From an uncultured Klebsiella sp. (GTDB lineage: Bacteria > Verrucomicrobiota > Verrucomicrobiia > Limisphaerales > SXTU01), in NCBI GenBank assembly GCA_964478755.1, contig CAYZJP010000002.1, positions 9,984 to 73,983 on the forward strand: a stretch of 64,000 nucleotides of DNA, in the 5' to 3' direction. The notes under the pieces are model-generated. The model was not told the DNA's origin. It ran no database searches and saw only the letters and a program-made list of their open reading frames with translations. A program made the position numbers and the translations under genes. Position 1 is the stretch's first letter. Each line of letters opens with the position of its first letter. Below, in pieces: positions 2,755-54,811 of this stretch.

Positions 2755-2758
2755 CGGC

Positions 2759-3586
2759 CTAAAAGTTGAAGAAGTTGGTGATGCCCAGTGTGGCGTTGTT
2801 GATGAAGCGCCCGTCGGCGTTGGGGCCGCTCACCGGTTTGGCCTTCGCGACGCTGCCGTCCATGAAGGTCCACATCAGGCGTCCGCCGTGGGCTCCGCGC
2901 TTGGTGATCTGGCCGGTGTAGCGCGTGGGGTCATCGTAGTAGCCGGGCGGGGCGTTGACGTCGATGCCGACGACGTTGGTGCTCATGTCCGAGGTGACGA
3001 AGTTGCGCGTGGGCTGCGGCCACTGCTGGACGCGCTTGGAGGGTGCCCAGGCCGAGGCCGCACCAGTGAAGGCGTTCACGCCGGTGAGCCGGCCCCACAT
3101 GAGGGTGACATTCGCGTTGCGCTAGTCCACGGGCCGGTCGTTGAAACGGAGTTCGTAGCGGCTGACGGCGTTGAGGAAACTGCCGGTGAAGTGCGACTCC
3201 CCATACAATGCCGGACAGCGGGCGACCTTCGCCTCCTGTGCGGTCGTGGGCCACGTGTTGGTGGCCGCCAGGCCAAGGTAGCCGCGCAGAAAGAAGGCTC
3301 CATAGACGCGGTTGGCCAGATCCAAGTCTGCGCGCATGATGCGGGGATAGAACGCGGTGCCCATGCCGCCCGGGAGGAAGTCATCGTGGTCGCTGTGATA
3401 CAGGTTCACCGCGAGAATGACCTGCTTGCTGTTGTTCGCGCACACGCCGCCCCGGCCGGCCTGCTTGGCCTTGGCCAGCGCGGGCAGAAGCATCCCCGCG
3501 AGGATCGCGATGATGGCGATGACGACGAGTAATTCTATGAGCGTGAAACCACCAAGTTTGAGTGAGGCTGGGCGCATGGTTTTCAT
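2759..3586 (-). pseudogene. Prepilin-type N-terminal cleavage/methylation protein with C-terminal H-X9-DG motif, interrupted by an in-frame TAG at 3122-3124
   Basis: [25 protein letters not shown] at the N-terminus. ORFs 3122..3586 and 2759..3100 are in the same frame (...DRPVD*RNANVTLMWG...). The distal part carries HGGRLMWTFMDG. Confidence 0.8.
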
Positions 3587-3676
3587 GTGCTCTGGTCGGG
3601 TGCTGTCACGATGAAAACTAGTGCCGCGCGCGGGGCCGTCAATGAGAAGTTTTGCCGTTCACGCCGGGCAATCGGC

Positions 3677-3704
3677 TTGAGATAATCTGCCTCTGGCTTA
3701 GCAT
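3677..3704 (+). promoter_or_regulatory. Putative sigma70 promoter of tilS (TTGAGA-N16-TAGCAT)
   Basis: Consensus-like -35/-10 hexamers; the -10 ends 6 nt before the ATG. Confidence 0.45.
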
Positions 3705-3710
3705 CGCGCC

Positions 3711-5081
3711 ATGCACGCGCTCGTTGCCCATGTGAACACCAGCATCCGCCAGCGTGCGCTGCTCAAGGCTGGCGGAGGCGTGCTCGTGGCGGTGTCGGGT
3801 GGAGTGGACTCGATGGTCTTGCTGCGGGTGTTGCACACGCTCGCATCGGAGCGCGGTTGGCGGCTGGTGGTGGCGCATTTCAATCATCGGTTGCGCGGCG
3901 CGGCGAGCGATGGTGATGCGCGGTTCGTGCAGCGGGCTGCACAGAAACTTGGCCTGAACTGCGTGGTGGAAAATGGCGATGTGCGGACGTTGGCTCATGA
4001 GCGAAGCTGGTCCGTCGAAATGGCGGCGCGCGAGTTGCGACATGAATTTCTTGCGCGGACGGCGAAGCGGCTCGGCTTGAACACCGTGTCGCTGGCGCAC
4101 CACGCGGATGATCAGGTGGAACTTTTTTTCCTCCGCCTGTTGCGTGGCGCTGGCGGTGGCTTGGTGGGGATGAGATGGCGGAGCGCTTCGCCGGTGGACA
4201 AGTCGGTGGCGCTTATTCGCCCGCTGCTCGACCAGTCGAAGACCGCACTGATGGAGTTTGCGCGTAAGGAACAGATTCGTTTCCGCGAGGATGTCTCGAA
4301 CGAGTCGCAGGACATCCTGCGCAACCGCGTCCGGCGCGAACTACTGCCGCTGTTGCGGGAACATTATCAACCTGGCTTGGAACGCACGGTCTTGCGCACG
4401 ATGGAAATTGTCGGCGCCGAGGCGGAGTTCGCGCAGGCCGCCGCGCGGGAATGGCTGCGGAGAAAAACGCGCGCAGCGTTTGGCCGTCTGCCCGTCGCGG
4501 TGCAGCGGCAATGCGCCTGCCTCGAATTGACGCGACTCGATCTCGCCGCCGACTTTGAGCTGGTGGAGCGGCTCCGGCTCCAGCCCGGCGTGAAACACTC
4601 GTGGCACGGCGGCTGGCTGGTGCGGGATGCTGTGTCTGGCTGCGTGTCACAACAATCTGCCACGCCGACGCAGGATGACTCCGGGACCAGATCGCTCTCG
4701 CCACTGCCCGCGCGTGGCTCAGTGTCGCTCGATGGTGTTGAAGTGAAATGGCGAACCCGACCGCGTGCTCCAGGCACCGCGATTCTTCGTGCGAAGAACC
4801 ACGAACGTTTCGACGCGGACAAGGTTGGCGCGCGCGTTCTGCTGCGGCACTGGCGGCCCGGCGACCGTTTCCAGCCGAGCGGCATCGCGCGTCCAACGAA
4901 GCTGCAAGACCTTTTCACCAACGCGAAGATTCCCACGCGCGAGCGTCATCGGCTGCTCCTGGCCGAGGCGGTGGACGGACGGATTTTCTGGGTGGAGGGG
5001 CTGCGGATTTCAGAGCCGTTCAAGCTGGGCGCAATGACCCGCACGGAGCTGGACTGGCGGTGGCGGCGCTGTGGTGTTTGA
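3711..5081 (+). CDS. tilS: tRNA(Ile)-lysidine synthase
   Basis: VAVSGGVDS PP-loop, VVAHFNH, AHHADDQVE, C-terminal RHWRPGDRF...KLQDLF domain. Confidence 0.95.
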   Translation: MHALVAHVNTSIRQRALLKAGGGVLVAVSGGVDSMVLLRVLHTLASERGWRLVVAHFNHRLRGAASDGDARFVQRAAQKLGLNCVVENGDVRTLAHERSWSVEMAARELRHEFLARTAKRLGLNTVSLAHHADDQVELFFLRLLRGAGGGLVGMRWRSASPVDKSVALIRPLLDQSKTALMEFARKEQIRFREDVSNESQDILRNRVRRELLPLLREHYQPGLERTVLRTMEIVGAEAEFAQAAAREWLRRKTRAAFGRLPVAVQRQCACLELTRLDLAADFELVERLRLQPGVKHSWHGGWLVRDAVSGCVSQQSATPTQDDSGTRSLSPLPARGSVSLDGVEVKWRTRPRAPGTAILRAKNHERFDADKVGARVLLRHWRPGDRFQPSGIARPTKLQDLFTNAKIPTRERHRLLLAEAVDGRIFWVEGLRISEPFKLGAMTRTELDWRWRRCGV

Positions 5082-5235
5082 GGAGGGCGAACGTTGCTTG
5101 GGAGAGCTTCGCGCCGTTTTTTTCGACGCTCCGGCGAAATGTTTTGAAAAAAAACGCAACATTTTTTATCCAGCATCGAATAATGCTGACTCGGCTCCGT
5201 CAGGCAATGCAGACGAGAAACTTAGAAAAAACTGT

Positions 5236-6558
5236 ATGAGCAATTATCAACCTCGCTGGTGCAATTCTGCCGACCACAGCTTTTATTCCTCCCGCCGCAA
5301 TTTCCTCCAGGTTGGCGCGCTGGGCACGCTCGGGCTGACGCTCGGCGACGTGTTCAAGGCGCAGGCCTACGAGGCGATCCCCTCCAAGGAAGGCAAGGCC
5401 AAGAACGTCATCAACATTTACCTGCCGGGCGGCATGGCGCATCAGGAGTCCTTCGACCCGAAGATGTATGCCCCCATCGAGTATCGCGGGCCGCTCGGCA
5501 CCGTGAAGACCAAGCTCGACGGCGTGTATTTCTCCGAGCTGATGAAGGACACCGCGCAGATCGCCGACAAGATCACGGTCGTCCGCTCCATGACGCACGG
5601 CGAGGCGGCGCACGAGCGTGGCACGCACAACATGATGACCGGCGTCCGTCCCAGCCCGGCGCTGGTTTATCCGAGCTTCGGCTCCGTGGTTTCGCACGAA
5701 CTGGGACCGCGCAACAATCTCCCGCCCTACGTGGCGATTCCGTCGGTCACCGCCAACGGCGGCACCGGCTATCTCGGCTCGGCGTTCGCGCCGTTCAGCC
5801 TCGGGGCCGATCCGGCGAGCAGCGGCTACAGGGTTCGCGACCTCACGTTGCCCAATGGCATTGATGACAAGCGTTTCGCCACCCGCCGCTCGATGCGCGC
5901 CGCCGTGGACGAGCACTTCTCCAAGTTGGAGAAGACCGACGCGCTCGACGGCATGGACACCTTCTACCAACGCGCTTACAGCCTGATCTCCTCGGAGAAG
6001 GCCCGCGAGGCGTTCGACATCGAGAAGGAGACTTCCAAGCTGCGGGACGAATACGGCCGCAACACCGCCGGGCAGCGGATGCTGCTGGCCCGTCGCCTTG
6101 TGGAGTCTGGCGTGCGCTTCGTCTCCATGACCTACGGCGGCTGGGACATGCACGACAGCATCAAGCGCTCGATGGAAAACCAGATGCCCAATTTCGACCG
6201 CGCGTTTGCCCGGCTCATCCGCGACCTCGACGAGCGCGGGATGCTCGACAACACGCTTGTCTATGTCACTTCCGAATTCGGCCGCACGCCGAAGATCAAC
6301 CAGACCGCCGGCCGCGACCACTGGCCCAAGGTCTTCTCGATCGTCATGGCCGGCGGCGGCATCAAGCGCGGCTACATCCACGGCTCCTCCGACGCCCAGG
6401 GCGCGGAGCCGGAGAACGACCCGCTCACGGTCAGCAATTACTCGGCGACGGTTTACAGCCTCATCGGCATTGACCCGGAGCGCCGGCTCATGTCGCCGGG
6501 CAGCCGTCCGCAGGCCATCGTCATTGACGGCCACGTCGAGAAGGAACTGCTCGCCTGA
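5236..6558 (+). CDS. DUF1501 family protein (twin-arginine-like N-terminus)
   Basis: SRRNFL, LPGGMAHQESFDPK, GGWDMH, TSEFGRTPKIN, GRDHWP, GGGIKRG motifs; start at ATG 5236. Confidence 0.9.
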   Translation: MSNYQPRWCNSADHSFYSSRRNFLQVGALGTLGLTLGDVFKAQAYEAIPSKEGKAKNVINIYLPGGMAHQESFDPKMYAPIEYRGPLGTVKTKLDGVYFSELMKDTAQIADKITVVRSMTHGEAAHERGTHNMMTGVRPSPALVYPSFGSVVSHELGPRNNLPPYVAIPSVTANGGTGYLGSAFAPFSLGADPASSGYRVRDLTLPNGIDDKRFATRRSMRAAVDEHFSKLEKTDALDGMDTFYQRAYSLISSEKAREAFDIEKETSKLRDEYGRNTAGQRMLLARRLVESGVRFVSMTYGGWDMHDSIKRSMENQMPNFDRAFARLIRDLDERGMLDNTLVYVTSEFGRTPKINQTAGRDHWPKVFSIVMAGGGIKRGYIHGSSDAQGAEPENDPLTVSNYSATVYSLIGIDPERRLMSPGSRPQAIVIDGHVEKELLA

Positions 6559-6654
6559 GCTGGCCTCGAAACGCATGGCGTTTCCGTCGAACACTTAACT
6601 GAACCAAGGCAGGGCAATGTCCGTCGCACGGCGTTGCCCTGTTTTACTTAAAAC

Positions 6655-9033
6655 ATGAAAAAGTTGTCCCTCGCCCTGCTGGCCGCCTGCGTCGTGAACG
6701 CCAGCGCGGTCGCCCCGTCGCTGCAAAACACCACGCCCAGCGGCCTTCAGCGCGGCACCGAGGCCGAGCTGAAGTTCAACGGCGCGCGCCTCGCCGACGC
6801 CGAGGAGGTCATCTTCTACGAGCCGGGCGTGAAGGTGCTGGAGCTGAAGGAGACAAAGGACAACTACGTTCTCGCGCGGGTGAAGCTCGACGCCGACTGC
6901 CCGCTCGGCGAGCACAAGGTTCGCGTTCGCACCAAGACCGGCGTCTCGGATTTCCGCACGTTCACTGTCGGGCCGTTTCCCCAAGTCGAGGAGAAGGAGC
7001 CGAACAACACGATCGACAAGGCGCAGAAGATCGCGCTGAACTCGACCGTGCTCGGCACGATGGGCAACGAGGACGTGGACTACTACTCCGTCGAGGTGAA
7101 GAAGGGCGAGCCGCTCTCGGTGGAAGTCGAAGGCATGCGCCTCGGTCGCACGATGTTCGATCCCTACGTCGCCATTCTCGACAAGCACGGCAAGGTGCTC
7201 GCGAAGGCCGACGACACCGCGCTCTTCATTCAAGACACTTACGCGACGATCATCGCTCCGGCGGACGGCGAGTATTTCATCGAGGTCCGCGAAACCAGCT
7301 ACGGCGGCAGCGGAAACCCCTATCGTGTCCACATCGGCAGCTTCCCGCGGCCCAGCGCGGTGTTTCCTCCCGGCGGCAAGGCCGGCGAGTCGCTTGAAGT
7401 GAAATTTCTCGGCGACGCCAACGGCGACTTCATGCAGACCTTCAGCCTGCCGCAGCCCAACCGTTTCAAGTTCGGCGTGTTTGCTGAGCGCAAGGGTCTT
7501 AGCGCGCCGTCGTTCAACATGGTGCGCATCTCGCCGTTCGGAAACGTCAATGAGAAGGAGCCGAACGACGATGTGGCGCACGCGACCGCCTACAGTGGCC
7601 CGCTGCCGATCGCCTTCAACGGCATCATCGACAAGCCGGGCGACGTGGACTGGTATCGCTTCAGCGCGAAGAAGGGCGAGACCTACGACATCAACGTCTA
7701 CGCTCGGCGCATCCGCTCGCAGCTCGACACCGTGCTCGTGCTGGCCGACGCCGATGGAAAGACCATCACCAGCAACGACGACTCCGGCGGCGCGGACAGC
7801 TACCTGCGCTTCACCGCGCCGCGCGACGGCGAGTTCACGCTCAAGATTTCCGACCACCTCGGCTACGGCGGGCCGGATTGCACATATCGTGTCGAACTGA
7901 CGGCGGTCGTGCCCGAGCTGAACACCTACATCGCGGACACGGCGCGCTACGACGCGCAGACGCGCAAGTCCATCGTCGTCGCGCGGGGCAACCGCTTCGC
8001 CTCACTTCAGAGCGTGCGACGCAAAGATTTGCCGGGCGAAGTGAGCGACTTGGAGTTCGCGATGGAAGGCTTTCCCTCCGGCATCACGATGCAGGCCGTG
8101 CCGGTTCCCAAGGATCAAACCACCTGGCCGGTGGTCTTCGAGGCTCGCGCCGACGCGCCCATCGCGGGCAAGCTCGCCAACCTCGCCATCCACAGCCCGG
8201 CGGACGCGAAGACGCAGGTCAAGGGCGGCATCTGGCAGAACTACGACCTCGTGCAGGACGGCAACAACGGTGTGTATTACCAGACGTGGACGGACAAGAT
8301 CGCCGTCGCCGTCGTGGATGAACTGCCGTTCAAGATCAGCATTGAGCCGCTGCGTGCGCCGCTCGTGCAGAGCGGCTCGTTGGACGTGAAGGTTCTCGTC
8401 GAGCGCAAGGAGGGCTTCGACGAACCCATCAAGGTCATCAACCTCTACAATCCGCCCGGCACCGGCAGCACACCGGACATCACCATTCCGAAGGGCGAGA
8501 AGTCTGCCGTCTATCCGCTGAACGCCAACGGCGGTGCGCCGACGAAGAACTGGAAAATTGCCTTCCTCGGCTCTGCGACTGTCAGCGGCGGCACGGCTTA
8601 CGCCTCCTCGCAACTCGCCGACCTTGAGGTTGCGCCCGCGTTCGTCGGCGGCAAGATAGCGCAGACCAACACCATCGTCGGCACATCCGTCCGGCTTCAC
8701 TGCTCGCTCGAGCAGAAGACGCCTTTCGAGGGCCGCGCCGAGGTGAAGCTCCTGGGATTGCCAGCCGGCGCGACCGCCGAGGCGAAGTCCATCACCAAGG
8801 ACGACAAGGAAATCATTTTCGAGGTGAACACCGCCACGAACGCCGTCAAGGGCATGCACCGCTCGCTCTTCGTCGCAATGAACCTCAAGCTCAAGGGCCA
8901 GGACGTGACGCAGACCTTTGCCAGCAGCGGCGCGCTGCGCATTGATCCGACCCGTCAGCAGTTGGCTGAGGCCAAGCCCGAAGCCAGGCCAACACAGAAG
9001 TCCCAGAAGTCACCGACCAAGCCCGGCAAGTGA
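6655..9033 (+). CDS. Secreted PPC (pre-peptidase C-terminal) repeat protein of the DUF1501 cluster
   Basis: Signal peptide; repeated EKEPN...GDVDWY/DVDYY and DDT/DDS..D units; no catalytic protease motif seen. Confidence 0.75.
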   Translation: MKKLSLALLAACVVNASAVAPSLQNTTPSGLQRGTEAELKFNGARLADAEEVIFYEPGVKVLELKETKDNYVLARVKLDADCPLGEHKVRVRTKTGVSDFRTFTVGPFPQVEEKEPNNTIDKAQKIALNSTVLGTMGNEDVDYYSVEVKKGEPLSVEVEGMRLGRTMFDPYVAILDKHGKVLAKADDTALFIQDTYATIIAPADGEYFIEVRETSYGGSGNPYRVHIGSFPRPSAVFPPGGKAGESLEVKFLGDANGDFMQTFSLPQPNRFKFGVFAERKGLSAPSFNMVRISPFGNVNEKEPNDDVAHATAYSGPLPIAFNGIIDKPGDVDWYRFSAKKGETYDINVYARRIRSQLDTVLVLADADGKTITSNDDSGGADSYLRFTAPRDGEFTLKISDHLGYGGPDCTYRVELTAVVPELNTYIADTARYDAQTRKSIVVARGNRFASLQSVRRKDLPGEVSDLEFAMEGFPSGITMQAVPVPKDQTTWPVVFEARADAPIAGKLANLAIHSPADAKTQVKGGIWQNYDLVQDGNNGVYYQTWTDKIAVAVVDELPFKISIEPLRAPLVQSGSLDVKVLVERKEGFDEPIKVINLYNPPGTGSTPDITIPKGEKSAVYPLNANGGAPTKNWKIAFLGSATVSGGTAYASSQLADLEVAPAFVGGKIAQTNTIVGTSVRLHCSLEQKTPFEGRAEVKLLGLPAGATAEAKSITKDDKEIIFEVNTATNAVKGMHRSLFVAMNLKLKGQDVTQTFASSGALRIDPTRQQLAEAKPEARPTQKSQKSPTKPGK

Positions 9034-45572: not shown

Positions 45573-48500
45573 ATGCCTATGAAATCCATGCTGAAATTTG
45601 CGGTGGTCGTGACCGCCGCTTCGTTCACCGCGCCGGTCTTCGCGCAGGACAAGCCGCTCACGCCGGAGGAGAGTGAGTTCTTCGAGGCCAAAATTCGTCC
45701 CGCGCTGATTGAGCACTGCCACAAGTGCCACAGCGGCGACAAGGACGCCAAAGTAAAGGGCAGTTTCCAGCTCGACTCCAAGGCTGGCCTGCTGAAGGGC
45801 GGCTCCACCGGGCCGGGTCTCGTCCCCGGTCAGCCCGACCGTTCGCTCATCATCAAGGCGATGCGCTACGCGGACCCGAATCTCCAGATGCCGCCCAAGG
45901 AAAAAGTCCCCGAGTCCGTGCTGGCCGACTTTGAGAACTGGGTTCGCATGGGTGCGCCCGACCCGCGCAGCGGCAAGGCGGCAGGGATGCTAAAAAATGA
46001 GGAAGACCTCGCCAAGGCCCGGAAACACTGGGCCTTTCAACCCGTCGTCAAGCCGGAGCCCCCCAAGCCCAAGGCGCATTTGAAGGGGTGGATTCAAAAT
46101 GAGGTTGACCTCTTCGTCCTCGCCAAGCTGGAGGAGAAAGGGATGTTCCCTTCGCCAATGGCGGACAAATGGACACTCGTTCGCCGCGCCTATTTTGACC
46201 TGCTCGGCATGCCGCCCTCCGCGAAAGAGGCCGAGGAGTTCGTCAACGACGAGTCGAAGGACGCGTGGCCCAAGCTGATTGACAAACTGCTCGCCTCCCC
46301 GCACTACGGCGAGCGTTGGGGCCGCTACTGGCTCGACATCGCGCGTTACGCTGACACGCGCGGCGGCGGGAACGCCAACCGGATGGGCGACAACCGTCTC
46401 CTCCATGCCTACACCTACCGTGACTGGGTGGTGAACGCGATCAACGAGGACATGCCCTATGACAAGTTCCTCAAGTATCAGATCGCGGCGGACTGCCTGC
46501 CCGGCACCGAAGCCAAGAACCTTGCCGCGCTGGGATTCATCACGCTCAACCGCGCCGTGAACAACCAGCAGGAGCGGATTGACGACCGCATTGACGTGGT
46601 GACCCGCGGCACGATGTCGCTCTCGGTTTATTGCGCCCGCTGCCACGACCACAAGTTTGATCCCATCCCGACGAAGGATTACTACTCGCTCTACGGTGTC
46701 TTCGACAGCAGCGTGGACGCCGTCGCCAAGCCATTGATCCAAAAGGTGGAGGACACGCCGCAGTATCGTGATTACCTCGCCAAGAAGGCCCAGATTGAGG
46801 CGGATCAGGAAGGCTTCCGCCGCTCTCAAGTCGGAACATTTGTAGGCGAGGCGAAGGGCAAGACGATGGAGTATATGCTCGCCATTCACTATGCGAATCT
46901 GGGCAACACGAACTATATGTTGCAGGGGCGTGCCGACCAGACGCGCTTCGATCAGATGACAAAATTGCATTTCGAGGTGGCTAACGACTGGAAACGCTAT
47001 CTCAACCAGCATAACAAGGCCAATGATCCCGTCTTCGGTCCATGGCATGACTATTCCAAGCTCGTGGAGGAGGACAAAGTCTCCGACAAGGACTTTGCCG
47101 CCAAGAGCAGGGAGCTTGCCGCCAAATATATGAGCAAGGACGGCGAGCCAATGAAGGGTCTTAACCCCGTCATCGCCAAGGCGTTTTCCACGCCAGTCCC
47201 CAGCATCCGCGTCGTGGCCGAGCGCTACTCCAAGATCTTCCTCGACGCCGAGAAGGCCTGGGTCACTGCCATCACACTGGACGCGAAGAAAAAGAAGGAC
47301 GATGGCGATCCGATGTTGAAGAAACTTTCAGACCCCTCGCAGGAGCAGCTCCGGCAGGTGTTCTATGGCCAAGGCTCACCTGTCAATATCACCTATGATC
47401 GCCTGGCCGGCTTCAAAAACGGGGCCATCCGCAATCAGGAACAGCAGCAGTTCGGCGACCGTATGGACAAGCTCGAAGCCACGCATCCCGGTGCGCCCAC
47501 CCGTGCGATGGCCGTTGGCGATGGCAATCCGCACAACGCAAAAGTGCTCATCAAGGGAATGCCGAACAATCCCGGTCCTGATCTCATTCCCCGTCAGTTC
47601 CTCGAAATCTTGAACCCGAACCGCAAGCCGTTCACCAAAGGCAGTGGACGCGGCGAGCTCGCCGAGGAGATCGCCAGCAAGAGCAATCCGCTCACCGCCC
47701 GCGTGCTCATCAATCGCGTTTGGATGAACCATTTCGGCGGCGCGCTGGTCCGCACCCCGACCGACTTTGGTGTTCGTGCGGATGACCCCACGCATCCCGA
47801 GCTGCTCAATTATCTCTCGGCCTGGGTGATGGAGAACAACTGGTCTGTCAAGGCGCTCCACAAATATATCATGACCTCGGCAGCTTATATGCAGAGCAGC
47901 GACGACCGCGCCAAGCCGTTGATCAACGACCCCGCGAACCTATACGTCTGGAAGATGAACCGCCGCCGCCTCGACTTCGAGGGCTTCCGCGATTCGCTTC
48001 TGGCTGTCAGCGGCAAGCTTGATCCCACGATGGGCGGGCGTCCGGTGAAGATCACCCCCGACGGCGCGAACCCGCTTGGCTACTCTGAGAACCCCTACCG
48101 CCGCACCCTTTATGGCTACATTGATCGCGGCAATCTCTCCTCGCTCTATCGCACGTTCGACTTCGCCAACCCGGACGCGACCGCTGGCATGCGCTTCAGT
48201 TCGACCGTGCCGCAGCAGGCGCTCTACTTGATGAACAGCCCGTTTATCGCCGAGCTGGCGCGTGCCATCGTCCACCGCGACGACGTGAAGAACAAAGTGG
48301 ACGAGGAGCAACGCATCGAGATGCTTTACCAGATCTGTTTCCAGCGTATGCCGGTCCCGTTGGAGACCAAGATCGGCATGAGATTTCTGGAGGAGCAGTC
48401 CGGCGTGAAGGGCAGCGACGCCAAGCCCCTCTGGCAATACGGCTACGGCCAATACGACGCGCGTAACCGCCGAGTGTCCTTCTTCAAAATGCCAAACTAC

Positions 48501-49172
48501 GCCTCCGGCACGGGCGGGGGAATGCGCATGAACATGAACATGGCCGCCCTCGGCCAATATGACGGCGGCACCAACAGCCGTCTGGCCGGCATTCAACTTA
48601 CTGCCGGTGGCGGCACCGCCGGCATCGTCGCAGTCATTCGTCGCTTTACCGCGCCTGTGGACGCCACGCTCACGATTGATGGCAAGCTCGAACAGAAAGG
48701 CAGCTTGGGCGACGGCGTCGGTGGCTACATCGTGCACAGCCGCTCCGGCCAGCTCGGAGCCTACGCCTTGGCGGGTCGGAACCGCAGCGCGGACACGAAG
48801 GTCGCCAAGGTGGATGTGAAGAAGGGCGACACGATTGACTTCATCGTGGACAACGGCGGCAAGGGCAACACGATCGGGGACACCTTCACTTGGGCGCCGA
48901 CCCTGCGTGTTGGCGCGGCTGCGGCCACGATGACTGCTTCCGCCGCTCCTGCCATGACGCCCTTCGGTGGCGCGGTGGCTCCCGCCGCCGCTCCGGCGAT
49001 GAACGCGGGCGCAGGGGGCATGGCCATGGGCGGCCAGATGGGCGGCACCACCAGTTGGAGCGCCGCCACCGGCTTTGGCGGGCCAAACGCCGGCCAGCAA
49101 AAGCCTCTCGACACCTGGGAGAAATACGCGCAGATGCTGCTCCTCGCCAACGAGATGACGTTCGTTGACTGA
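45573..49172 (+). CDS. Planctomycete cytochrome c + DUF1549 + DUF1553 protein with extra domains and Met/Gly/Ala-rich linkers
   Basis: CHKCH, HYGERWGRYWLDIARYADT, CARCHDHKFDPI, RVLINRVWMNHFG, PTHPELL, QQALYLMN. Confidence 0.9.
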   Translation: MPMKSMLKFAVVVTAASFTAPVFAQDKPLTPEESEFFEAKIRPALIEHCHKCHSGDKDAKVKGSFQLDSKAGLLKGGSTGPGLVPGQPDRSLIIKAMRYADPNLQMPPKEKVPESVLADFENWVRMGAPDPRSGKAAGMLKNEEDLAKARKHWAFQPVVKPEPPKPKAHLKGWIQNEVDLFVLAKLEEKGMFPSPMADKWTLVRRAYFDLLGMPPSAKEAEEFVNDESKDAWPKLIDKLLASPHYGERWGRYWLDIARYADTRGGGNANRMGDNRLLHAYTYRDWVVNAINEDMPYDKFLKYQIAADCLPGTEAKNLAALGFITLNRAVNNQQERIDDRIDVVTRGTMSLSVYCARCHDHKFDPIPTKDYYSLYGVFDSSVDAVAKPLIQKVEDTPQYRDYLAKKAQIEADQEGFRRSQVGTFVGEAKGKTMEYMLAIHYANLGNTNYMLQGRADQTRFDQMTKLHFEVANDWKRYLNQHNKANDPVFGPWHDYSKLVEEDKVSDKDFAAKSRELAAKYMSKDGEPMKGLNPVIAKAFSTPVPSIRVVAERYSKIFLDAEKAWVTAITLDAKKKKDDGDPMLKKLSDPSQEQLRQVFYGQGSPVNITYDRLAGFKNGAIRNQEQQQFGDRMDKLEATHPGAPTRAMAVGDGNPHNAKVLIKGMPNNPGPDLIPRQFLEILNPNRKPFTKGSGRGELAEEIASKSNPLTARVLINRVWMNHFGGALVRTPTDFGVRADDPTHPELLNYLSAWVMENNWSVKALHKYIMTSAAYMQSSDDRAKPLINDPANLYVWKMNRRRLDFEGFRDSLLAVSGKLDPTMGGRPVKITPDGANPLGYSENPYRRTLYGYIDRGNLSSLYRTFDFANPDATAGMRFSSTVPQQALYLMNSPFIAELARAIVHRDDVKNKVDEEQRIEMLYQICFQRMPVPLETKIGMRFLEEQSGVKGSDAKPLWQYGYGQYDARNRRVSFFKMPNYASGTGGGMRMNMNMAALGQYDGGTNSRLAGIQLTAGGGTAGIVAVIRRFTAPVDATLTIDGKLEQKGSLGDGVGGYIVHSRSGQLGAYALAGRNRSADTKVAKVDVKKGDTIDFIVDNGGKGNTIGDTFTWAPTLRVGAAAATMTASAAPAMTPFGGAVAPAAAPAMNAGAGGMAMGGQMGGTTSWSAATGFGGPNAGQQKPLDTWEKYAQMLLLANEMTFVD

Positions 49173-49204: not shown

Positions 49205-49235
49205 AGGCCGCCGTCATCGGCGGCCTTTGTGCTTT
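49205..49235 (+). terminator. Intrinsic terminator
   Basis: AGGCCGCCG-TCAT-CGGCGGCCT followed by TTGTGCTTT. Confidence 0.6.
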
Positions 49236-49304
49236 CCGAAGCGCACTCCGCGCTTGGAAATCTCGTGCAACTCCGCTCCCCTTTGCTACGTCCAACAAAC
49301 CACC

Positions 49305-52300
49305 ATGCCCGTCTCGAAGTCTTTGATTCAGCAGAGCGCCGGCCTCCTGGCCCGCGTCGGCGCGCTCTTACTGATCGCTGTGGTGAGCGCCGCCGCCGCC
49401 GACCGCGCGCGTTCCGTGGACTTCGAGCGCGAAATTCTTCCCATCTTCCAACGTGTCTGCTTCGAGTGCCACGATGCAAAGCAGAAGAAGGGCAAACTTC
49501 GTCTCGACTCCCGCGTCGCCGCCCTCCAGAAGCCCGGCATCATCGTTCCCGGCAATTCCGCGCGGAGCGAGCTTGTCCGCCGCATCACATTGCCTAAGGG
49601 CCATGACGATGTTATGCCCAATCGTGGCGAGCCGCTCTCCCAATCACAGGCCGACCTCATCAAGACCTGGATGGACCAGGGCGCGGTCTGGCCGGAGAGC
49701 CTGCAAGCCACGAAGCACTGGGCCTACGTGAAACCTGTTCGTCCCGCCGTCCCTTCAATCGCCAATCGCCAATCCTCCGCCGGCAATCCCATTGACGCCT
49801 TCGTCCTCGCCCGCCTCCAGCAGGAAGGTCTCAAGCCTTCTCCCGAAGCCCCGTCTGAAATCCTTGCCCGACGCCTCTGCCTCGATCTCATCGGATTGCC
49901 GCCCTCCCCTGCGCAAACAGAAGCCTTCGCACAGCGCGCCGCCCACAACCCTCAACAGGCTGTCGAGAAACTTGTGGACGAGCTCCTCGCCTCGCCGCAG
50001 TTCGGCGTCCGCTGGGCACGCCCGTGGCTCGACTACGCGCGCTACGCGGACTCGCACGGGTTTCAACGCGACGACTTTCGCGACCTTTGGCCGTATCGCG
50101 ACTGGGTGGTGAACGCGCTGAATGCCGATATGCCATTCACGCAGTTCACCACCGAGCAGCTCGCGGGCGATTTGCTGCCGAACGCCACCGAGTCGCAGAA
50201 GATTGCCACCGGCTTCAACCGCAGCGCGCCCACAAACGTCGAGGCCGGCACCGACCCGGAGGAGACGCGCGTGAACCAGATTCACGACCGCGTGAACACG
50301 CTCGGCATGACCTGGCTCGGCGTCACGCTGGAGTGCTGCCAGTGTCATGACCACAAATATGATCCGTTCACCCAGCGCGACTACTACGGCCTCTTCGCCT
50401 TCTTCAACAACACCGCGCTCGAAGCCGACCGCACGAACCCCAAGGTGCCCGGCTCGATCCAGTTCAAAGGCCCGACGATAGATCTCGCTGACGCAGCGAC
50501 GCAGGCCGAGCGCGTGAAGCTGAACACGCAAATCGCCGAAGTGAATGCGAAGCTTGCTGTGTTGGAAAAATCCGCCGCAGCGGGTCAACTCGAATGGGAA
50601 ATGACGCTTGGCAAAAAGGTCGCCGAAGCGCCGAAACAATATGCGCTCGACATCGCGAAGTTCGAGTCCACCGGCGGCGCGACGCATGAAATCCTCACCG
50701 ACAAATCCGTGCTCATCAGTGGCGAGCCTGCGCCTGACAAGGATACTTACATCGTCGAAGTGCGCACGAAGATCACGGGCATTCGTGGCTTCAAACTCGA
50801 AACGCTCACGGATGATTCACTGCCCGGCAAAGGCCCTGGTCGCGGTGACGAGAAGCGACCTAACTTTGTGCTGAACAACTTTACCGTCACCGCTGCGCCG
50901 GCTAACAAACCAGAGCAGGCGAAGCCCGTGAAATTTTCATCGGCACAGGCGTCGTTCTCGCAGGCGAATTATCCGGTGGCGAATTTGCTCAACACCGACA
51001 ACACCGCGAAGGGCGGCTGGGCCATCAATCCGAAGTTTCACGAACCGCATTGGGCTGTGCTGGAAACCGCCGAGCCGGTCGGCTTTGCCGAAGGCACTGT
51101 GTTGAAGTTCAAGCTGGAGCAAGGCTTCGGCGCGAGCCGGACGATTGGCCGGCTCCGCTTGTGCGCCATCACGGGAAACGTCGGTGGCAAGGCGCTGCCG
51201 GTGGAACTGACCGAGGCGCTTGCGGTTCCGGTCGCCAGGCGAACGGCGAAGCAGAAGAAATTCGTGATGGAATTTCAATTGAAGGAGAACCCCGAGTTCG
51301 CGCGGCTGGAGAAGGAGAGGAGCCGGCTGGGTTTGCAGTTGTTGAAAATCAAACCAAGCACCACGCTGGTCATGCAGGAGGACTCGCCGCGTATGAGCGC
51401 GGTTTTCCAACGCGGCGATTTCCGCACGCCCGGCGAGAAGGTCGAGCCGCACACACCGGCGGTGCTGCATTCTTTGGGGAGCGCACGCGTCACGCGTGCT
51501 GACTTCGGCGTTCCGCCGAAATCTTCGTCCATCAATTTGAGTCCTGAACGCGCGTCGGGCGAGACGTCCGAGGCGGCACGCGAGACGCGTGCGCTCCCCA
51601 ATCGCCTGGACCTCGCGCAGTGGCTCGTGAGCCGCGAGAACCCGCTCGTCGCACGGGTCGTGGTGAACCGTTGGTGGGCGGAATTGTTCGGTCACGGCCT
51701 CGTCACCACGCCGGAGGATTTCGGCATCAAGGGCGAGTTGCCGACCCACCCCGAGTTGCTCGACTGGCTTGCGTGCGAGTTCATGGACAACGGCTGGTCG
51801 ATGAAGAAGACGCTCAAGACCATCGTGATGAGCGCGACCTACCGGCAGTCGTCGCGCGTCACGCCGGAGTCGTTCGCGCGCGATGACCAGAATCTCCTCT
51901 ACGCGCGTGGCCCTCGGCATCGGCTCGAAGCGGAGATGATTCGCGACAACGCGCTCGCGATTTCCGGTCTGTTGAGCTTCAAGCAGGGCGGCGCGCCCAT
52001 CAAACCGTATCAGCCTGACGGCCTGTGGGTGAAAGTTGGCGGCCAGCGTTACGACTACGAAGTCAGCCCCGGCGAGGAAAAATACCGTCGCGGCCTCTAC
52101 GTCGTGTGGAAACGCGGCGCGCCGTATCCGAGCTTTGTGAACTTCGACGCCAACAGCCGTCTCGCCTGCCGCGTGAAGCGCCCGCGCTCGAACACGCCGC
52201 TGCAAGCCCTCACGCTGATGAACGACCCGGTCTATGTCGAAGCCGCAATGGCCTTCGCCAAGCGCGTGCTGACGGAGAAGCCCACGGCCAACACCGACGA

Positions 52301-52529
52301 GCGCATCGCCCATGCCTTCCGGCTCGCGATGGCCCGCGCCCCGCGCGCTGGAGAACTTGCCACGCTCACGCAACTCCTGGAGGTGTCGCGCGCGAAGGAC
52401 GCGAAGGCAGCGAAGGAGTTCATCGCCAACTTCGCGCTGCCCACGGGCGTCACCGCCGAGGAATTCACCGCGTGGTATGCGGTGGCGGCGGCGCTGCTGA
52501 ACCTGGACGAAACAATCACAAAGGGATAA
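49305..52529 (+). CDS. Planctomycete cytochrome c + DUF1549 + discoidin-like insert + DUF1553 protein with an in-frame palindromic insertion
   Basis: CFECH, FGVRWARPWLDYARYADS, ECCQCHDHKYDP, ARVVVNRWW, SNTPLQALTLMN, LLNLDETITKG. Confidence 0.9.
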   Translation: MPVSKSLIQQSAGLLARVGALLLIAVVSAAAADRARSVDFEREILPIFQRVCFECHDAKQKKGKLRLDSRVAALQKPGIIVPGNSARSELVRRITLPKGHDDVMPNRGEPLSQSQADLIKTWMDQGAVWPESLQATKHWAYVKPVRPAVPSIANRQSSAGNPIDAFVLARLQQEGLKPSPEAPSEILARRLCLDLIGLPPSPAQTEAFAQRAAHNPQQAVEKLVDELLASPQFGVRWARPWLDYARYADSHGFQRDDFRDLWPYRDWVVNALNADMPFTQFTTEQLAGDLLPNATESQKIATGFNRSAPTNVEAGTDPEETRVNQIHDRVNTLGMTWLGVTLECCQCHDHKYDPFTQRDYYGLFAFFNNTALEADRTNPKVPGSIQFKGPTIDLADAATQAERVKLNTQIAEVNAKLAVLEKSAAAGQLEWEMTLGKKVAEAPKQYALDIAKFESTGGATHEILTDKSVLISGEPAPDKDTYIVEVRTKITGIRGFKLETLTDDSLPGKGPGRGDEKRPNFVLNNFTVTAAPANKPEQAKPVKFSSAQASFSQANYPVANLLNTDNTAKGGWAINPKFHEPHWAVLETAEPVGFAEGTVLKFKLEQGFGASRTIGRLRLCAITGNVGGKALPVELTEALAVPVARRTAKQKKFVMEFQLKENPEFARLEKERSRLGLQLLKIKPSTTLVMQEDSPRMSAVFQRGDFRTPGEKVEPHTPAVLHSLGSARVTRADFGVPPKSSSINLSPERASGETSEAARETRALPNRLDLAQWLVSRENPLVARVVVNRWWAELFGHGLVTTPEDFGIKGELPTHPELLDWLACEFMDNGWSMKKTLKTIVMSATYRQSSRVTPESFARDDQNLLYARGPRHRLEAEMIRDNALAISGLLSFKQGGAPIKPYQPDGLWVKVGGQRYDYEVSPGEEKYRRGLYVVWKRGAPYPSFVNFDANSRLACRVKRPRSNTPLQALTLMNDPVYVEAAMAFAKRVLTEKPTANTDERIAHAFRLAMARAPRAGELATLTQLLEVSRAKDAKAAKEFIANFALPTGVTAEEFTAWYAVAAALLNLDETITKG
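51474..51601. repeat. Palindromic element, family D, in frame within the CDS
   Basis: TIRs TTGGGGAGCGCACGCGTCACGCGTGC and GCACGCGAGACGCGTGCGCTCCCCAA; translates as LGSARVTRADFGVPPK...AARETRALP. Confidence 0.85.
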
Positions 52530-52539
52530 CGCTGCTGCC

Positions 52540-53271
52540 ATGCACCTGATGTTTGTTGATGAGTCTGGTGACCCCGGTTATCCGCCGGATGGCAATTGGC
52601 CAGCCTGGAAGGGCAGCAGCCACTTTGTTCGTGTCGGCGTGATTATTCATGGCTGGCGGTGGAAGGCTTGGCACCGGCGCCTCTTGAATTTCAAACAAAC
52701 GCGGGGATTGCTTTGGGATGCCGAAATCAAAGGCTCTCATCTCCGCACTGGCAAAGGGGTTTTCATTGGCTGGGAGGAATCACGGCGGCTGTTGTTTCGG
52801 AGTGACCTGGCAAAACTGATCGGCTACAGCCGGGAGATCACCCTTGTGGGCGTGGCGATTGACAAAAAGAAGGTGAATACTCTCGGACGCGAGCGAATCA
52901 TGCGCCCTGAAGTCCGCTCGCTTGAGTTGCTGTTGGAGCGTTACAACCACTTCCTCAACCAGCAATCGGACAAGGCGTGGATTGTCATTCTGGATCCGGT
53001 TGAAGAATCAAAGGATGACAACCTGCGGCACTTTCAGTCCTATCTGCTGGATCAAGGGCAAAACTTCCAGCATTCGCACATAGTTGAAGGCGCTTTCTTT
53101 GCCAAATCACACACGTCAAATCTGCTGCAGGTGGCGGATTTTGCAGCCAACGTGTTTTACCAGCACGCAGCCCGGGCGAATGGCGGGGATGAGTATGAGG
53201 CCTTGAAGCCGCGCTTCTGGCGGTGGAAAGGCAGGACGACCGGCTACGGAGTAAAGATATGGCCGGAATAA
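52540..53271 (+). CDS. DUF3800 family protein (RNase H-like acidic motifs)
   Basis: [13 protein letters not shown] start, [10 protein letters not shown], terminal GYGVKIWP; lower GC than its flanks. Confidence 0.85.
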
Positions 53272-53338
53272 AAAAGGCGGCCAAGGAAGCTTTCGCTCCG
53301 CCAGTCGCACACTTGCGGCTGTCTTGGTCGCGCCTTTT
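53272..53338 (+). ncRNA. Candidate DUF3800-associated structured RNA (three-way junction)
   Basis: Outer stem AAAAGGCG-GCCAAG/CTTGGTCGCGCCTTTT enclosing hairpins GGAAGC-TTTC-GCTCC and AGTCGCA-CACT-TGCGGCT, immediately after the stop. Confidence 0.45.
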
Positions 53339-53389
53339 CCATCGCTCATTGCCGGAAGATTTTCAAGCGTTTATTGGGAGGATTCCAAC

Positions 53390-54811
53390 ATGACCAACTA
53401 TGTCGCCCCACACTCACGTCGGCAATTCTTCCGCCGGAGCGGCTTCAGCCTCGGTTCGATGGCGCTCGCGTCGCTACTGCGCGGTTCGCTTCTCGCCGCG
53501 CCGGCGAATCCGCTCGCGTCGCGGCAGCCGATGTTCGCGCCGCGCGCGAAGCGGGTGATTTTCCTGCACATGATTGGCGCGCCGTCGCAGCTCGATATGT
53601 TCGACCACAAGCCCGAGTTGGTGAAGCGCGACGGCGAGGACTGCCCGGAGTCGTTGTTGAAGGGCCGGCGCTTCGCGTTCATCGGCGGGAAGATGCAGCT
53701 CGCTGGCAGCAAGTTTAAGTTCACCAAGCACGGGCGCAGCGGGCAGGAAATTTCTGAGACGCTGCCGCACTTGGCGAAGGTCGCGGACGACATCGCCATC
53801 GTGAAGACGCTGCACACGGAGGAGATCAATCACGCGCCGGCGCAGATGTTTTTGCACACCGGCTTCGGGCGCGGCGGGCGGCCGAGCTTCGGCTCGTGGG
53901 TGACTTACGGACTCGGCACGGAGAACCAGGATCTGCCCGCCTACACGGTGCTGCTCTCCGGCCCGCTTGGCGGCGCGGGCACGACGCTGTGGGCGAACGG
54001 CTTTTTGCCGAGCGTCTATCAGGGCATCCAGTTCCGTTCCAGTGGCGACCCGGTGTTGTTCCTCAGTAATCCCAAGGGCCAGTCGCAGGACGACCGGCGG
54101 CGCGTGTTCGATGCGGTCAAAGATTTGAACGAGCGTCAGCTCGCCGACGTGGGCGACCCGGAAATCGCCACGCGCATCAGCCAATATGAGATGGCGTTCA
54201 AGATGCAGACGAGCGTGCCGGAGCTGATGGACATCTCGCGCGAGTCGAAGTCCGTGCTCGACCTCTACGGCGCGAAGTCGGGCACGGCGGCGTTCGCGAA
54301 CAACTGCCTGCTCGCGCGCCGGCTCATCGAGCGCGGCGTGCGCGTGGTGGAACTTTACGACGCCGACTGGGACCATCACTCCGGCCTCGCGACGCGGTTG
54401 CCCGCGAAATGCCGCGATGTGGACCAGGGCATGGCCGGTCTCATCACCGACCTCAAGACGCGCGGGATGCTCGACGACACGCTCGTGATTTGGGGCGCAG
54501 AGTTCGGACGCACGCCGTTGCGGCAGGGCATTGACGGCGATGGCAAGAGCACGAACCCCGGCCGCGACCACCACAAGGACGCCTACACGATGTGGCTCGC
54601 CGGCGGCGGCGTGAAAGGCGGCCTTACCTACGGCCGCACGGACGATTTCGGCTTCAGCCCCGTGGAAAATCCCGTCCACGTCCACGACCTCAACGCGACC
54701 GTGCTGCACCTCCTCGGCCTCGACCACGAGCGGCTTACCTTCAAGTATCAAGGCCGCGAGTTCCGCCTGACGGACGTGCATGGCGAAGTGCTGCGCGGGC
54801 TGCTGGCGTGA
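53390..54811 (+). CDS. DUF1501 family protein
   Basis: [64 protein letters not shown]. Confidence 0.92.

Follow-up and report, generated by a model that had tools for sequence, protein, structure and literature searches.

The locus studied here raises the question of what a DUF3800 gene followed by a structured RNA is doing between a DUF1553 gene and a DUF1501 gene, and in which way protein and RNA are related. We have carried out the analysis on a window, i.e. the whole stretch of 64,000 nucleotides, whose source is a rock metagenome. A PSCyt1/PSCyt2/PSD1 (DUF1549/DUF1553) gene occupies 49227..52529 (+; PSD1 Pfam E 9.4e-99), its TAA stop codon being at 52527-52529, and 10 nt further on is found the ATG of the DUF3800 gene (52540..53271, +), which encodes 243 amino acids; the DUF1501 gene is located at 53390..54811 (+; Pfam E 5e-155). 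An earlier note on this DNA had described the 243-residue reading frame 10 nt past the DUF1553 stop, its comparatively low GC content and a three-way junction, composed of an outer stem and two hairpins, between DUF3800 and DUF1501. These descriptions are accurate: the gene coordinates agree, the GC content of the DUF3800 gene is 0.52-0.56 versus 0.60-0.68 for the flanks, and the junction is found at ~53274..53338.

The same note had taken the module to be inserted rather than ancestral at this position, and comparison with loci carrying orthologues of the PSD1 gene (L113, L114 and L115, 70-76% identity) bears this out. At L114 the site is empty, the PSD1 stop being followed by 4 nt and the DUF1501 ATG, and at L113 and L115 other genes occupy the same PSD1-DUF1501 slot, so that selfish or defence cargo can use the DUF1553-DUF1501 pair as a landing slot. 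The N-terminus encoded by the window DUF1501 gene (~9 codons, MTNYVAPHS) is unlike that of its orthologues (MNPSVSHLDLLH), which are 90-94% identical to the window gene, and the right-hand insertion junction is therefore placed there. We consider it highly probable that the locus carries a two-gene cassette of ~0.85 kb, in which a DUF3800 gene and a small RNA gene converge, which has spread horizontally over at least 12 phyla and which was inserted at PSD1-DUF1501 in a Verrucomicrobial lineage.

Concerning the protein, its PF12686 profile score of 54.5 bits, against a cut-off of 21, covers residues 4-209, and 42 out of 42 aligned homologues match the same profile. Its homologues number 258, with identities of 54-84% and lengths that are almost all within 237-255 amino acids. 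The N-terminal motif of the window protein is VDESGDPG, a β-strand motif which we take to be reminiscent of the D-E-x-G-(R/K)-G of RNase HII. Residues that are invariant across the 42 sequences include D7-E8-S9, E129/E133, D152, D160, H180, H191 and Q197..D200; the conserved acidic DUF3800 motifs that the earlier note had named are thus present, with D7, E8, S9, Q197 and D200 all invariant, and N-terminal D-E(-S) and C-terminal QxxD motifs have been given for DUF3800 proteins (PMC7736814). The AF2 model of the protein (pLDDT 81, pTM 0.82) resembles RNase HII and RNase H2A in its fold, as inferred from a Foldseek comparison with the PDB in which the best nine matches all belong to these enzymes (prob 0.84-1.00; 1eke, 2dff, 3p83 and 3puf among the top ones), with E values of only 4e-3 to 7e-2, TM of 0.37-0.50 (0.41-0.50 for most) and identities of 12-15%. 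This agrees with the RNase H-like fold stated for DUF3800 (PMC7736814, PMC10910872), and the model makes the label 'nuclease-like', used in the earlier note, a reasonable one. At the sequence level no meaningful match to the PDB or to Pfam RNase_HII was obtained, with the window protein or in a Pfam scan of the 42 homologues. Searches of PADLOC and NCBIfam with the DUF3800 protein returned no match to a known defence protein, and its matches in PHROGs were weak, all of them to PHROGs of unknown function.

The small RNA gene, ~60 nt in length and highly conserved, extends over 53270..53331 on the minus strand, where it reaches 88.4 bits (E 1e-20) with covariance model R1. A 55-nt three-way-junction core runs from 53331 to 53277 (-) and is followed by a C and by a U6 tract at 53275..53270, within which fall the final two bases of the DUF3800 stop codon. 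The outer stem P1 pairs the 5' strand GCGACCAAG (53323..53331, -), which holds an invariant A4·C mismatch, with the 3' strand CUUGGCCGC (53277..53285, -), directly after which the U-run begins; it corresponds to pairs 1-59 to 9-51 of the covariation alignment A2. Hairpin P2, CAGCCGCA-AGUG-UGCGACUG (53302..53321, -), contains a conserved C·A mismatch and the AGUG loop and is nearly invariant across phyla, and hairpin P3, GGAGC-GAAA-GCUUC (53286..53299, -), has a variable stem closed by a GNRA tetraloop. A 5-bp element, 5'-GCGAC-3' / 5'-GCCGC-3' with its A·C mismatch, is present in both P1 and P2, and the bases of P1, P2 and the junction are near-invariant across phyla.

We have found the element in ~100 copies, which come from 12 or more bacterial phyla, and 75 distinct copies were compared. 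Compensatory changes on both sides are observed at 10 of the 22 pairs, among them 1-59, 7-53, 8-52 and 9-51 in P1 and five out of five pairs in P3, where 96% of the cells are paired. None of 500 shuffled controls reached any of five structure measures, in slid controls the paired cells fell from 90% to 35-46%, and the RNAalifold consensus structure is the same three-way junction. The structure shared by the 3' flanks of the homologues is thus well beyond what chance would produce. The earlier note had also pointed to Rfam motifs named for DUF3800, and these indeed exist (PMC5737381; RF02969 and RF02968 in PMC11701678), but none of them matches the element: Rfam 15 has no family at E <= 10 in 52000-54000, the scan of the whole window gave none at gathering score for the RNA element, and ten related loci gave no match at E <= 0.1. 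Two other candidate identities were set aside, namely a tRNA or tmRNA mimic, for which ARAGORN finds nothing, and an anti-Shine-Dalgarno role for CCUCCUU in P3/P1, against which speaks the lack of sequence conservation in P3.

From the comparison of copies, the RNA is assigned to the minus strand, as a gene of its own that is convergent with DUF3800; minus-strand transcription is predicted from sequence alone, and metatranscriptomes from a related sample yielded nothing. Counting from the first base of P1, the three bases of a TTG at -35..-33 are found in 63, 56 and 50 of the 75 copies and an A at -11 in 46 of 75, and a strict sigma-70 match is obtained for 15 of 75 copies, versus 0.9 expected in shuffles; on the other side of the element none of the 75 has such a match. 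The best promoter match in the window is TTGAAA-17-GATGGA, in which the -35 box TTGAAA (53361..53366, -) is in register with the family-wide TTG and the -10 region GATGGA (53338..53343, -) is a poor match to TATAAT. The close relatives L120 and L121 keep TTGAAA and have GAACAA and GAAGAA as -10 regions, and a consensus promoter scan of the window copy found no promoter; the poor -10 in the window copy and its two closest relatives makes promoter strength uncertain here. The copies at L035 and L094, by contrast, have strong predicted promoters. The predicted 5' end of the RNA is G53331, ~7 bases past the sigma-70-type promoter. At the other end, P1 runs straight into a U-run in 59 copies (of 74 in one count, of 75 in a second), and 10 further ones have a U-run after a separate hairpin, bringing the terminators to 69 of 75.

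The association between gene and RNA has been analysed from both sides. Starting from the protein, every one of the 18 intact genes of the subfamily is followed directly by the RNA, encoded on the opposite strand and in one copy each, and the closest relatives, L116-L122, also carry it. Starting from the RNA, the DUF3800 gene is intact at 41 of 55 loci, partial at 5 and absent at 9, so that the two are paired at 46 of 55; the orphan RNA copies retain a recognisable promoter and terminator, and at one locus the gene is split by an insert of ~1.5 kb next to an intact RNA. The RNA is limited to one DUF3800 subfamily (at least ~48% identity) and is absent from relatives at 23-36%. The blastn homology between loci begins at the ATG (median -1) and stops at the first base of the RNA (median +1), which together with the 18 intact genes supports the proposal, made in the earlier note, of a self-contained module of protein and cognate RNA. 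A decay in which the RNA outlasts the gene is the typical pattern of toxin-antitoxin pairs; the asymmetry, i.e. a protein never seen without its RNA, suits an obligatory RNA cofactor equally well.

The neighbourhoods of the cassette are in many cases those of defence systems. At 14 loci or more it has a DUF1156 methylase gene on one side and a DUF499 ATPase gene on the other, and at L116 the flanking genes score as HmaB (2.8e-104) and HmaC (4.7e-95); further copies adjoin Eco57I-type enzymes, PLD-SNF2 helicases, Fic, PIN or DUF4276. The window copy is found in an ordinary PSD1-DUF1501 operon with no Hma neighbours and outside any defence island, and the Hma association is thus frequent but not obligatory. 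A 2026 survey of Hma and DUF499-centred systems mentions neither DUF3800 nor an RNA, and the cassette constitutes an unreported accessory of these systems.

The reading that we favour, although only tentatively, is that the RNA binds the DUF3800 nuclease and restrains or regulates it in the manner of a toxin-antitoxin or abortive-infection system; the binding, the toxicity and the trigger are what we infer from the features above. An abundant, independently transcribed RNA would bind the DUF3800 protein, we suggest with the two identical A·C helices taking one protomer apiece, and the bound nuclease would be kept inactive or regulated, as with an RNA antitoxin. The RNA would in addition be perfectly antisense to a read-through transcript of the operon and may for this reason also lower DUF3800 expression. 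Should the RNA be lost or displaced, for example upon phage shut-off of host transcription, the nuclease would be freed and would cut nucleic acid. The cassette would then act as an addiction or abortive-infection module, a behaviour which would explain its hitch-hiking in operons and defence islands. A bolder version, which we hold to be possible but doubtful, is that of a new minimal RNA-protein toxin-antitoxin or abortive-infection module in which a single RNA with two A·C-wobble helices clamps two RNase HII-like protomers. If true, a nuclease held by its cognate RNA would explain all the unrelated RNA motifs associated with DUF3800, as well as the recurrence of DUF3800 as an accessory of retrons, Cas12a2/a3, Cas13 and Hma.

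The strongest competitor, rather unlikely in our estimation, is that DUF3800 works as a ribonucleoprotein enzyme for which the RNA is an obligatory cofactor or scaffold, so that the RNA would activate or target the nuclease and not inhibit it. The presence of the RNA beside all 18 intact genes and the near-invariance of P1, P2 and junction bases would be expected here also, the duplicated GCGAC/GCCGC element suggests specific protein contacts, and the occurrence of eleven other, unrelated RNA structures with other DUF3800 families (PMC5737381) points to a general need for an RNA partner. However, a cofactor deprived of its enzyme would not be expected to persist, and yet 9 of 55 RNAs do so without the protein, their promoter and terminator still recognisable; furthermore, the RNA does not have a variable single-stranded segment that could serve as a guide.

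A distinct and less probable possibility is a purely cis-acting antisense RNA of type I-like character, pairing with read-through mRNA at the DUF3800 3' end and intergenic region without any protein binding and working through RNase III cleavage or transcriptional interference. The convergent layout, with the U-run over the stop codon, is compatible with such a role, and most neighbouring genes point the same way as DUF3800, namely 29 of 40 on the upstream side and 33 of 38 on the downstream side. The plus strand is without a consistent terminator, a T-run past the element being missing in most copies, and read-through transcripts complementary to the RNA are therefore likely. Antisense pairing, however, needs no set sequence or fold, whereas P1 and P2 are near-identical over 12 or more phyla and compensatory changes maintain the three-way junction; moreover, the orphan RNA copies face no DUF3800 mRNA.

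The earlier note had placed the structure on the plus strand, as a 3' part of the DUF3800 transcript, and a 3'-UTR element or terminator of that mRNA is a reading to which we now give very little credence. In the window the plus strand does fold, with -31.2 kcal/mol and a U-rich tail CCUUUUCC, a consensus scan gives one terminator-like site at 53314..53332 (+), and the two near-invariant positions 4-56 and 14-27, which are A·C mismatches on the minus strand, become G·U on the plus strand. Nevertheless, when the variable pairs are read on the plus strand they yield 117 mismatches and 9 G·U, as opposed to 22 mismatches and 104 G·U on the minus strand, and pair 18-23, an A-U in 33 copies and a G·U in 39, is compatible with the minus strand only. 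The P3 loop is of the GNRA type in 49 of 75 copies when read on the minus strand, the promoter boxes are oriented for the minus strand, and the T-run that a plus-strand terminator would use is missing in most copies, while the minus terminator is present in 69 of 75. In agreement, the covariance model R1 scores 18.2 bits on the plus strand of the window against 88.4 bits on the minus strand, and the plus-strand minimum free energy structure represents 0.7% of the ensemble, versus 66% for the minus-strand fold (-23.7 kcal/mol).

Comparably remote is the reading of the cassette as a self-mobile element, with DUF3800 as an RNase H-fold transposase or recombinase directed by RNA or single-stranded DNA, in the way of the IS110 bridge RNA or the IS200/IS605 end hairpins. 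The RNase H-like fold is common to transposases, the occurrence across phyla is patchy with 54-67% protein identity, and the insertion in the window is clean in comparison with the empty site. The structural matches are nonetheless to RNase HII and not to transposases, one copy is found in each genome or contig examined, and neither terminal inverted repeats nor target-site duplications nor conserved flanking sequence accompany the copies. The earlier note had seen no mobility gene, and indeed the window around the module contains no transposase, no terminal inverted repeats and no flanking direct repeats, with no target-site duplication at the module borders. Its suggestion of RNA-guided mobility, on the other hand, finds no support, as the RNA has neither variable loops to read a target nor a variable unpaired guide segment, its sole variable part being P3, which is base-paired over 5 bp. 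Of 50,697 phage and 72,556 plasmid records none gave a tblastn match to the DUF3800 protein, and the RNA motif was not found in viral contigs. A phage or plasmid origin has been rejected on these grounds, and a transposon, an insertion sequence or an integron cassette on those of single copy and absence of terminal or direct repeats at the borders. That the element does no more than terminate transcription in both directions or insulate, with no function as an RNA, as the A-run before the outer stem and the T-rich run after it in the window copy might suggest, is hardly conceivable, for terminators are not conserved in sequence across phyla and need no covarying three-way junction or positioned promoter.

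DUF3800 proteins recur in retrons, several CRISPR types and defence islands, and the cassette offers a compact case for the function of DUF3800 with RNA, in which a protein of 243 residues goes with an RNA whose core is 55 nt. Comparative data are enough to define its boundaries and strand as well as its promoter and terminator, and the invariant RNA bases, including the duplicated helix with the A·C mismatch, are clear mutational targets.

Among known systems the closest are the DUF3800-I to -XI RNA motifs (Weinberg et al. 2017, PMC5737381; Rfam RF02969, RF02968 and others), which likewise are conserved structured noncoding RNAs adjoining a DUF3800 gene in several phyla, and for which no specific hypothesis of function was obvious to their authors. 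Those motifs often have a Rho-independent terminator and lie on either strand relative to the gene; the present RNA is set apart by the Rfam models and, unlike them, has a fixed position, convergent with DUF3800 and abutting its stop codon. With type III toxin-antitoxin systems (ToxIN, CptIN, TenpIN) the cassette shares a nuclease or nuclease-like protein with an adjacent structured RNA, a protein that is never without its RNA, defence contexts and horizontal spread. In type III systems the antitoxin consists of tandem repeats, encoded ahead of the toxin and in its orientation, which the toxin itself processes, whereas here the RNA is single, non-repeated, on the opposite strand and with its own promoter, no tandem array of it having been found; also, the DUF3800 model is RNase HII-like, unlike the ToxN/Kid-like toxin. 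The type I pairs txpA/RatA and bsrG/SR4 of Bacillus subtilis have convergent antisense RNAs that overlap at the 3' end, and the cassette resembles them in having a small RNA with its own promoter that converges on the 3' end of its partner. Their toxin, however, is a small hydrophobic peptide, in contrast to a soluble, enzyme-like protein of 243 amino acids, and type I antisense RNAs are not known to keep their sequence from one phylum to another.

A further set of relatives is found in loci where an RNase H2-like DUF3800 protein lies beside a structured or guide RNA and which are themselves defence loci. [quoted passage not shown] Here, reverse transcriptase and Cas genes, CRISPR arrays and TPR domains are all absent, and the RNA is far smaller and is not a guide. 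With respect to enzymes, the AF2 model comes closest in structure to RNase HII and RNase H2A; these nucleases cleave RNA/DNA hybrids by means of four catalytic carboxylates (DEDD), and the acids conserved in the DUF3800 protein are D7, E8, E129, E133, D152, D160 and D200. Finally, Hma is a BREX-related, DUF499-centred system composed of the helicase HmaA, the methylase HmaB and the ATPase HmaC (PMC12839542, PMC11232893), and whereas the window copy lies elsewhere, at no fewer than 14 loci the cassette is placed exactly between HmaB (DUF1156) and HmaC (DUF499), Smithella sp. F21 providing an example with the order HmaB-DUF3800-sRNA-HmaC.

A DUF3800 gene followed by a three-way-junction structure had been placed between DUF1553 and DUF1501 genes by the earlier note, and the ORF, its Pfam match, the GC dip and the predicted fold bear this out. 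The 243-aa ORF (52540..53271, plus strand; Pfam DUF3800 54.5 bits, cut-off 21) starts 10 nt past the TAA that ends a PSCyt1/PSCyt2/PSD1 (DUF1549/DUF1553) gene (49227..52529) and is followed by a DUF1501 gene starting at 53390; the GC content is 0.52–0.56 over the gene versus 0.60–0.68 in both flanks, and folding places the three-way junction directly past its stop codon. Two PSCyt1/PSCyt2/PSD1 genes stand in tandem (45573..49172 and 49227..52529) before the single DUF1501, a doubling shared by the orthologous locus L113, and a 9-nt unit (CGCGAAGGA) occurs three times within the PSD1 coding region (52391..52417), probably a trivial feature encoding a short AKDAKAAKE-type repeat. The best-matching homologues of DUF1501 are in MAGs of Verrucomicrobia and Limisphaerales, and the window sequence is present in rock-metagenome runs.

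A search of 5.8 billion proteins retrieved 258 relatives of the DUF3800 protein, the best 120 of which have 54–84% identity and nearly all 237–255 residues. The subfamily alignment averages 67% column identity, with invariant residues including M4-F-V-D7-E8-S9-G-D11, E129/E133, D152, D160, H180-I-V-E183, K189-S-H-T192 and Q197..D200. In one-genome-per-species data the hosts are MAGs, at 54–66% identity to the window protein, from Verrucomicrobiota, Planctomycetota, Anaerolineales, Nitrospirales, Gemmatimonas, Elusimicrobiota, Fibrobacteres, Syntrophales, Sumerlaeota, Terriglobia, Gammaproteobacteria and Lentisphaera. No match to the protein was found in PADLOC or NCBIfam, none to the subfamily in plasmid and phage collections, and no relative by sequence in the PDB. 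The AF2 model has good overall confidence (pLDDT 81, pTM 0.82; residues 176–192 disordered), and each of its nine top PDB structural matches is an archaeal RNase HII or human RNase H2A (E 4e-3 to 7e-2, TM 0.37–0.50), in agreement with the RNase H-like resemblance reported by others for DUF3800 (PMC7736814, PMC10910872).

Directly 3' of the stop codon, a near-identical sequence of ~55 nt is present in each of the 18 genome loci whose gene is intact. A degenerate pattern derived from this element found 83 metagenome loci, none in viral contigs and one site in the window, against 0 expected by chance. In an alignment of 75 distinct RNA copies, 89.8% of cells are paired on a structure with an outer closing stem (P1) and two hairpins (P2 and P3), and both-side changes occur in 10 of the 22 pairs (74 cells); none of 500 shuffles matches any of five measures, sliding the partners by 1–3 columns lowers pairing to only 35–46%, and RNAalifold, unguided, recovers the same three helices. 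The covariation check on homologue flanks proposed in the earlier note has thus returned a common structure, and the RNA element is genuine and very widely distributed. The sequence of P3 is free to change, with covariation at each of its five pairs; P1, P2 and the junction bases hardly differ between phyla. A 536-nt contig of a public run (X4) aligns to window 53270..53331 with 2 differences in 62 nt and flanks unlike those of the window, being therefore one more independent copy.

The earlier note had assumed an RNA on the plus strand, downstream in the DUF3800 transcript; four independent lines, namely pairing, loop type, promoter and terminator, contradict this and indicate that the RNA is encoded on the minus strand. 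Leaving out two invariant mismatch positions, the remaining pairs give 104 G·U and 22 mismatches on the minus strand, versus 9 G·U and 117 mismatches on the plus; pair 18–23, for example, reads on the minus strand as A-U (33 copies) or G·U (39), where the plus equivalent would be A-U or A·C. The P3 loop read on the minus strand is a GNRA tetraloop in 49 of 75 copies (GAAA 37, GAGA 7, GGAA 4, GCAA 1). Upstream of P1 base 1 on this strand, T/T/G occur at −35/−34/−33 in 63, 56 and 50 of the 75 copies and A at −11 in 46, and a strict match (TTGACA-(16–18)-TATAAT, ending 6–8 nt ahead of base 1) is present in 15 copies, against an average of 0.9 and a maximum of 4 in shuffles and 0/75 on the opposite flank of the element. 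In the window copy and its nearest relatives the −35 box is preserved as TTGAAA, but the −10 is poor (GATGGA, GAACAA, GAAGAA). A U-run immediately follows P1 in 59 copies, and 10 of the other 16 have a separate GC-rich hairpin with a U-run within 70 nt. In the window, the covariance model scores 88.4 bits on the minus strand against 18.2 on the plus, and the minus-strand fold is a well-defined minimum with 66% of the ensemble, versus 0.7% for the plus fold. The RNA would therefore span G53331 to about 53270, its U6 tract overlapping the DUF3800 stop codon.

The minus-strand structure retains A·C mismatches at 4–56 (75/75 copies) and 14–27 (72/75). Both lie in an identical context, 5'-GCGAC-3' paired with 5'-GCCGC-3', in P1 (alignment columns 1–5 with 55–59) and in P2 (24–28 with 13–17), and thus the RNA presents the same 5-bp helix twice. 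A·C and U·G pairs are isosteric, and since a single locus (L005) replaces C14·A27 by U·G, it seems to be the wobble geometry that is conserved. Such a repeated helix would be expected of two predicted binding sites for one protein.

Orthologous loci were found via the DUF1501 protein (90–94% identity; their PSD1 70–76%), and the PSD1–DUF1501 gap is in these a variable slot with differing cargo. In L114 (5996..6001) the slot is empty, the PSD1 stop being separated from the DUF1501 ATG by 4 nt (TGCC); L115 (4818..6001) has a ~390-aa squalene-cyclase-like gene, L113 (3949..6001) such a gene plus a 271-aa HNH endonuclease gene (HNH E 1.7e-12), and the window (52529..53390) DUF3800 and the RNA. The comparison indicates that the cassette inserted at this site, as the earlier note proposed. 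The first ~9 codons of the window DUF1501 (MTNYVAPHS, 53390..53420) differ from those of every close orthologue (MNPSVSHLDLLH...), placing the right-hand junction within the start of the gene; the insert seems to have replaced this start, supplying a new ATG together with its ribosome-binding site (GGGAGG). Two DUF3800 relatives, the closest at 84% and 77% identity, likewise lie directly 3' of orthologous PSD1, with different DNA downstream; the insertion is thus common to a small clade and not ancestral in the wider group, so that the alternative of a gene ancestral at this locus fails. Terminal inverted repeats, target duplications and tandem repeats were not found, each genome has one copy, and plasmid, phage and viral collections returned none, which argues against a transposon.

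The association of protein and RNA was analyzed from both sides. Starting from the protein, a single RNA copy on the strand opposite to the gene accompanies every intact gene (18/18), as it does in the closest relatives (L116–L122); DUF3800 genes at 23–36% identity are without it. Starting from the RNA, in 55 non-redundant loci with sufficient upstream DNA, the gene is intact in 41, partial or disrupted in 5 and absent in 9. Nucleotide homology between loci extends from the ATG (median −1) to the RNA first base (median +1), and orphan RNA copies retain the A-run and promoter boxes. The neighbours of orphans (L057, L058, L062, L072, L088, L094, L105) are of toxin-antitoxin or defence type: SNase, DUF4276, Schlafen/AlbA_2, Fic (twice), PIN and HATPase_c_4/Fic-like_C. 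In L019 (5486..7001) the subfamily gene is split near residue 162 by ~1.5 kb and the downstream RNA is intact (85.8 bits); the insert holds a 388-aa ORF on the opposite strand, with no Pfam match, which may be a transposase. In L013 (6055..6780) and L010 another DUF3800 paralogue, unrelated to the first (MVYHIYCDES..., Pfam E 7e-14), lies just past the RNA promoter, the RNA being therefore flanked there by two different DUF3800 genes; L013 also has a sub-threshold Rfam whalefall-1 hit (RF01762; 7841..7913, both strands, 25–26 bits versus a gathering score of 37).

Flanking genes are co-directional with DUF3800 upstream in 29/40 cases, 11 of these within 40 nt, and downstream in 33/38; the cassette usually rides inside gene arrays, with the RNA antisense to any read-through transcript. 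In at least 14 loci the cassette lies between a DUF1156 methylase gene (upstream) and a DUF499 ATPase gene (downstream), frequently accompanied by a PLD-SNF2 helicase, and neighbours in Smithella sp. F21 score 2.8e-104 for HmaB and 4.7e-95 for HmaC. This neighbourhood is the Hma, or DUF499-centred BREX-related, defence system (PMC12839542, PMC11232893), whose survey makes no mention of DUF3800 or the RNA. Other copies adjoin Eco57I-type enzymes and type III methylases. In L049/L075 the upstream DUF1156 (HmaB-like) gene, at about 2695..7092, is unusually long (1465 aa); it includes a GIY-YIG domain (E 1.1e-12) as well as stretches of a short ARGSDS-type repeat, suggestive of internal insertions.

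The anatomy of the cassette is firm; its function is inferred. We tentatively favour an RNA-antitoxin-like arrangement, in which the structured RNA would be transcribed constitutively and bind the RNase HII-like protein, restraining or regulating DUF3800; an antisense effect on read-through mRNA may contribute as well. This reading is preferred because the protein is never without the RNA, yet the RNA outlives loss or disruption of the protein gene; because the RNA has its own promoter and DUF3800 usually none; because defence and toxin-antitoxin genes accompany the cassette; and because retrons and CRISPR loci include DUF3800 as an effector or accessory. The leading alternative, rather less probable, makes the RNA a required cofactor of the protein. 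A purely antisense role is weaker than the cofactor and decidedly improbable, as it leaves the cross-phylum sequence conservation unexplained. Weaker still, a plus-strand UTR element is at odds with the strand evidence and a mobile element with the missing repeats, single copies and absence from plasmid, phage and viral collections, so that we give either very little credence.

In respect to known systems, the cassette may work like type III or type I toxin-antitoxins. However, it differs from type III in having no repeat array and an RNA on the opposite strand, which rules out membership, and type I is ruled out because there is no small peptide toxin. Eleven structured RNA motifs beside DUF3800 genes, of unknown function, were described in 2017 (PMC5737381); the scan for Rfam DUF3800 motifs advised in the earlier note gave no match to any Rfam 15 model, and this is therefore another DUF3800-associated RNA, outside every named motif. 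New here are the assignment of the RNA to its strand, the anatomy of its promoter and terminator, the A·C helix present twice, the asymmetry of decay, the place inside Hma operons and the empty site. Rather than a new category, the cassette offers a small, clean and experimentally tractable way into a question that dates from 2017.
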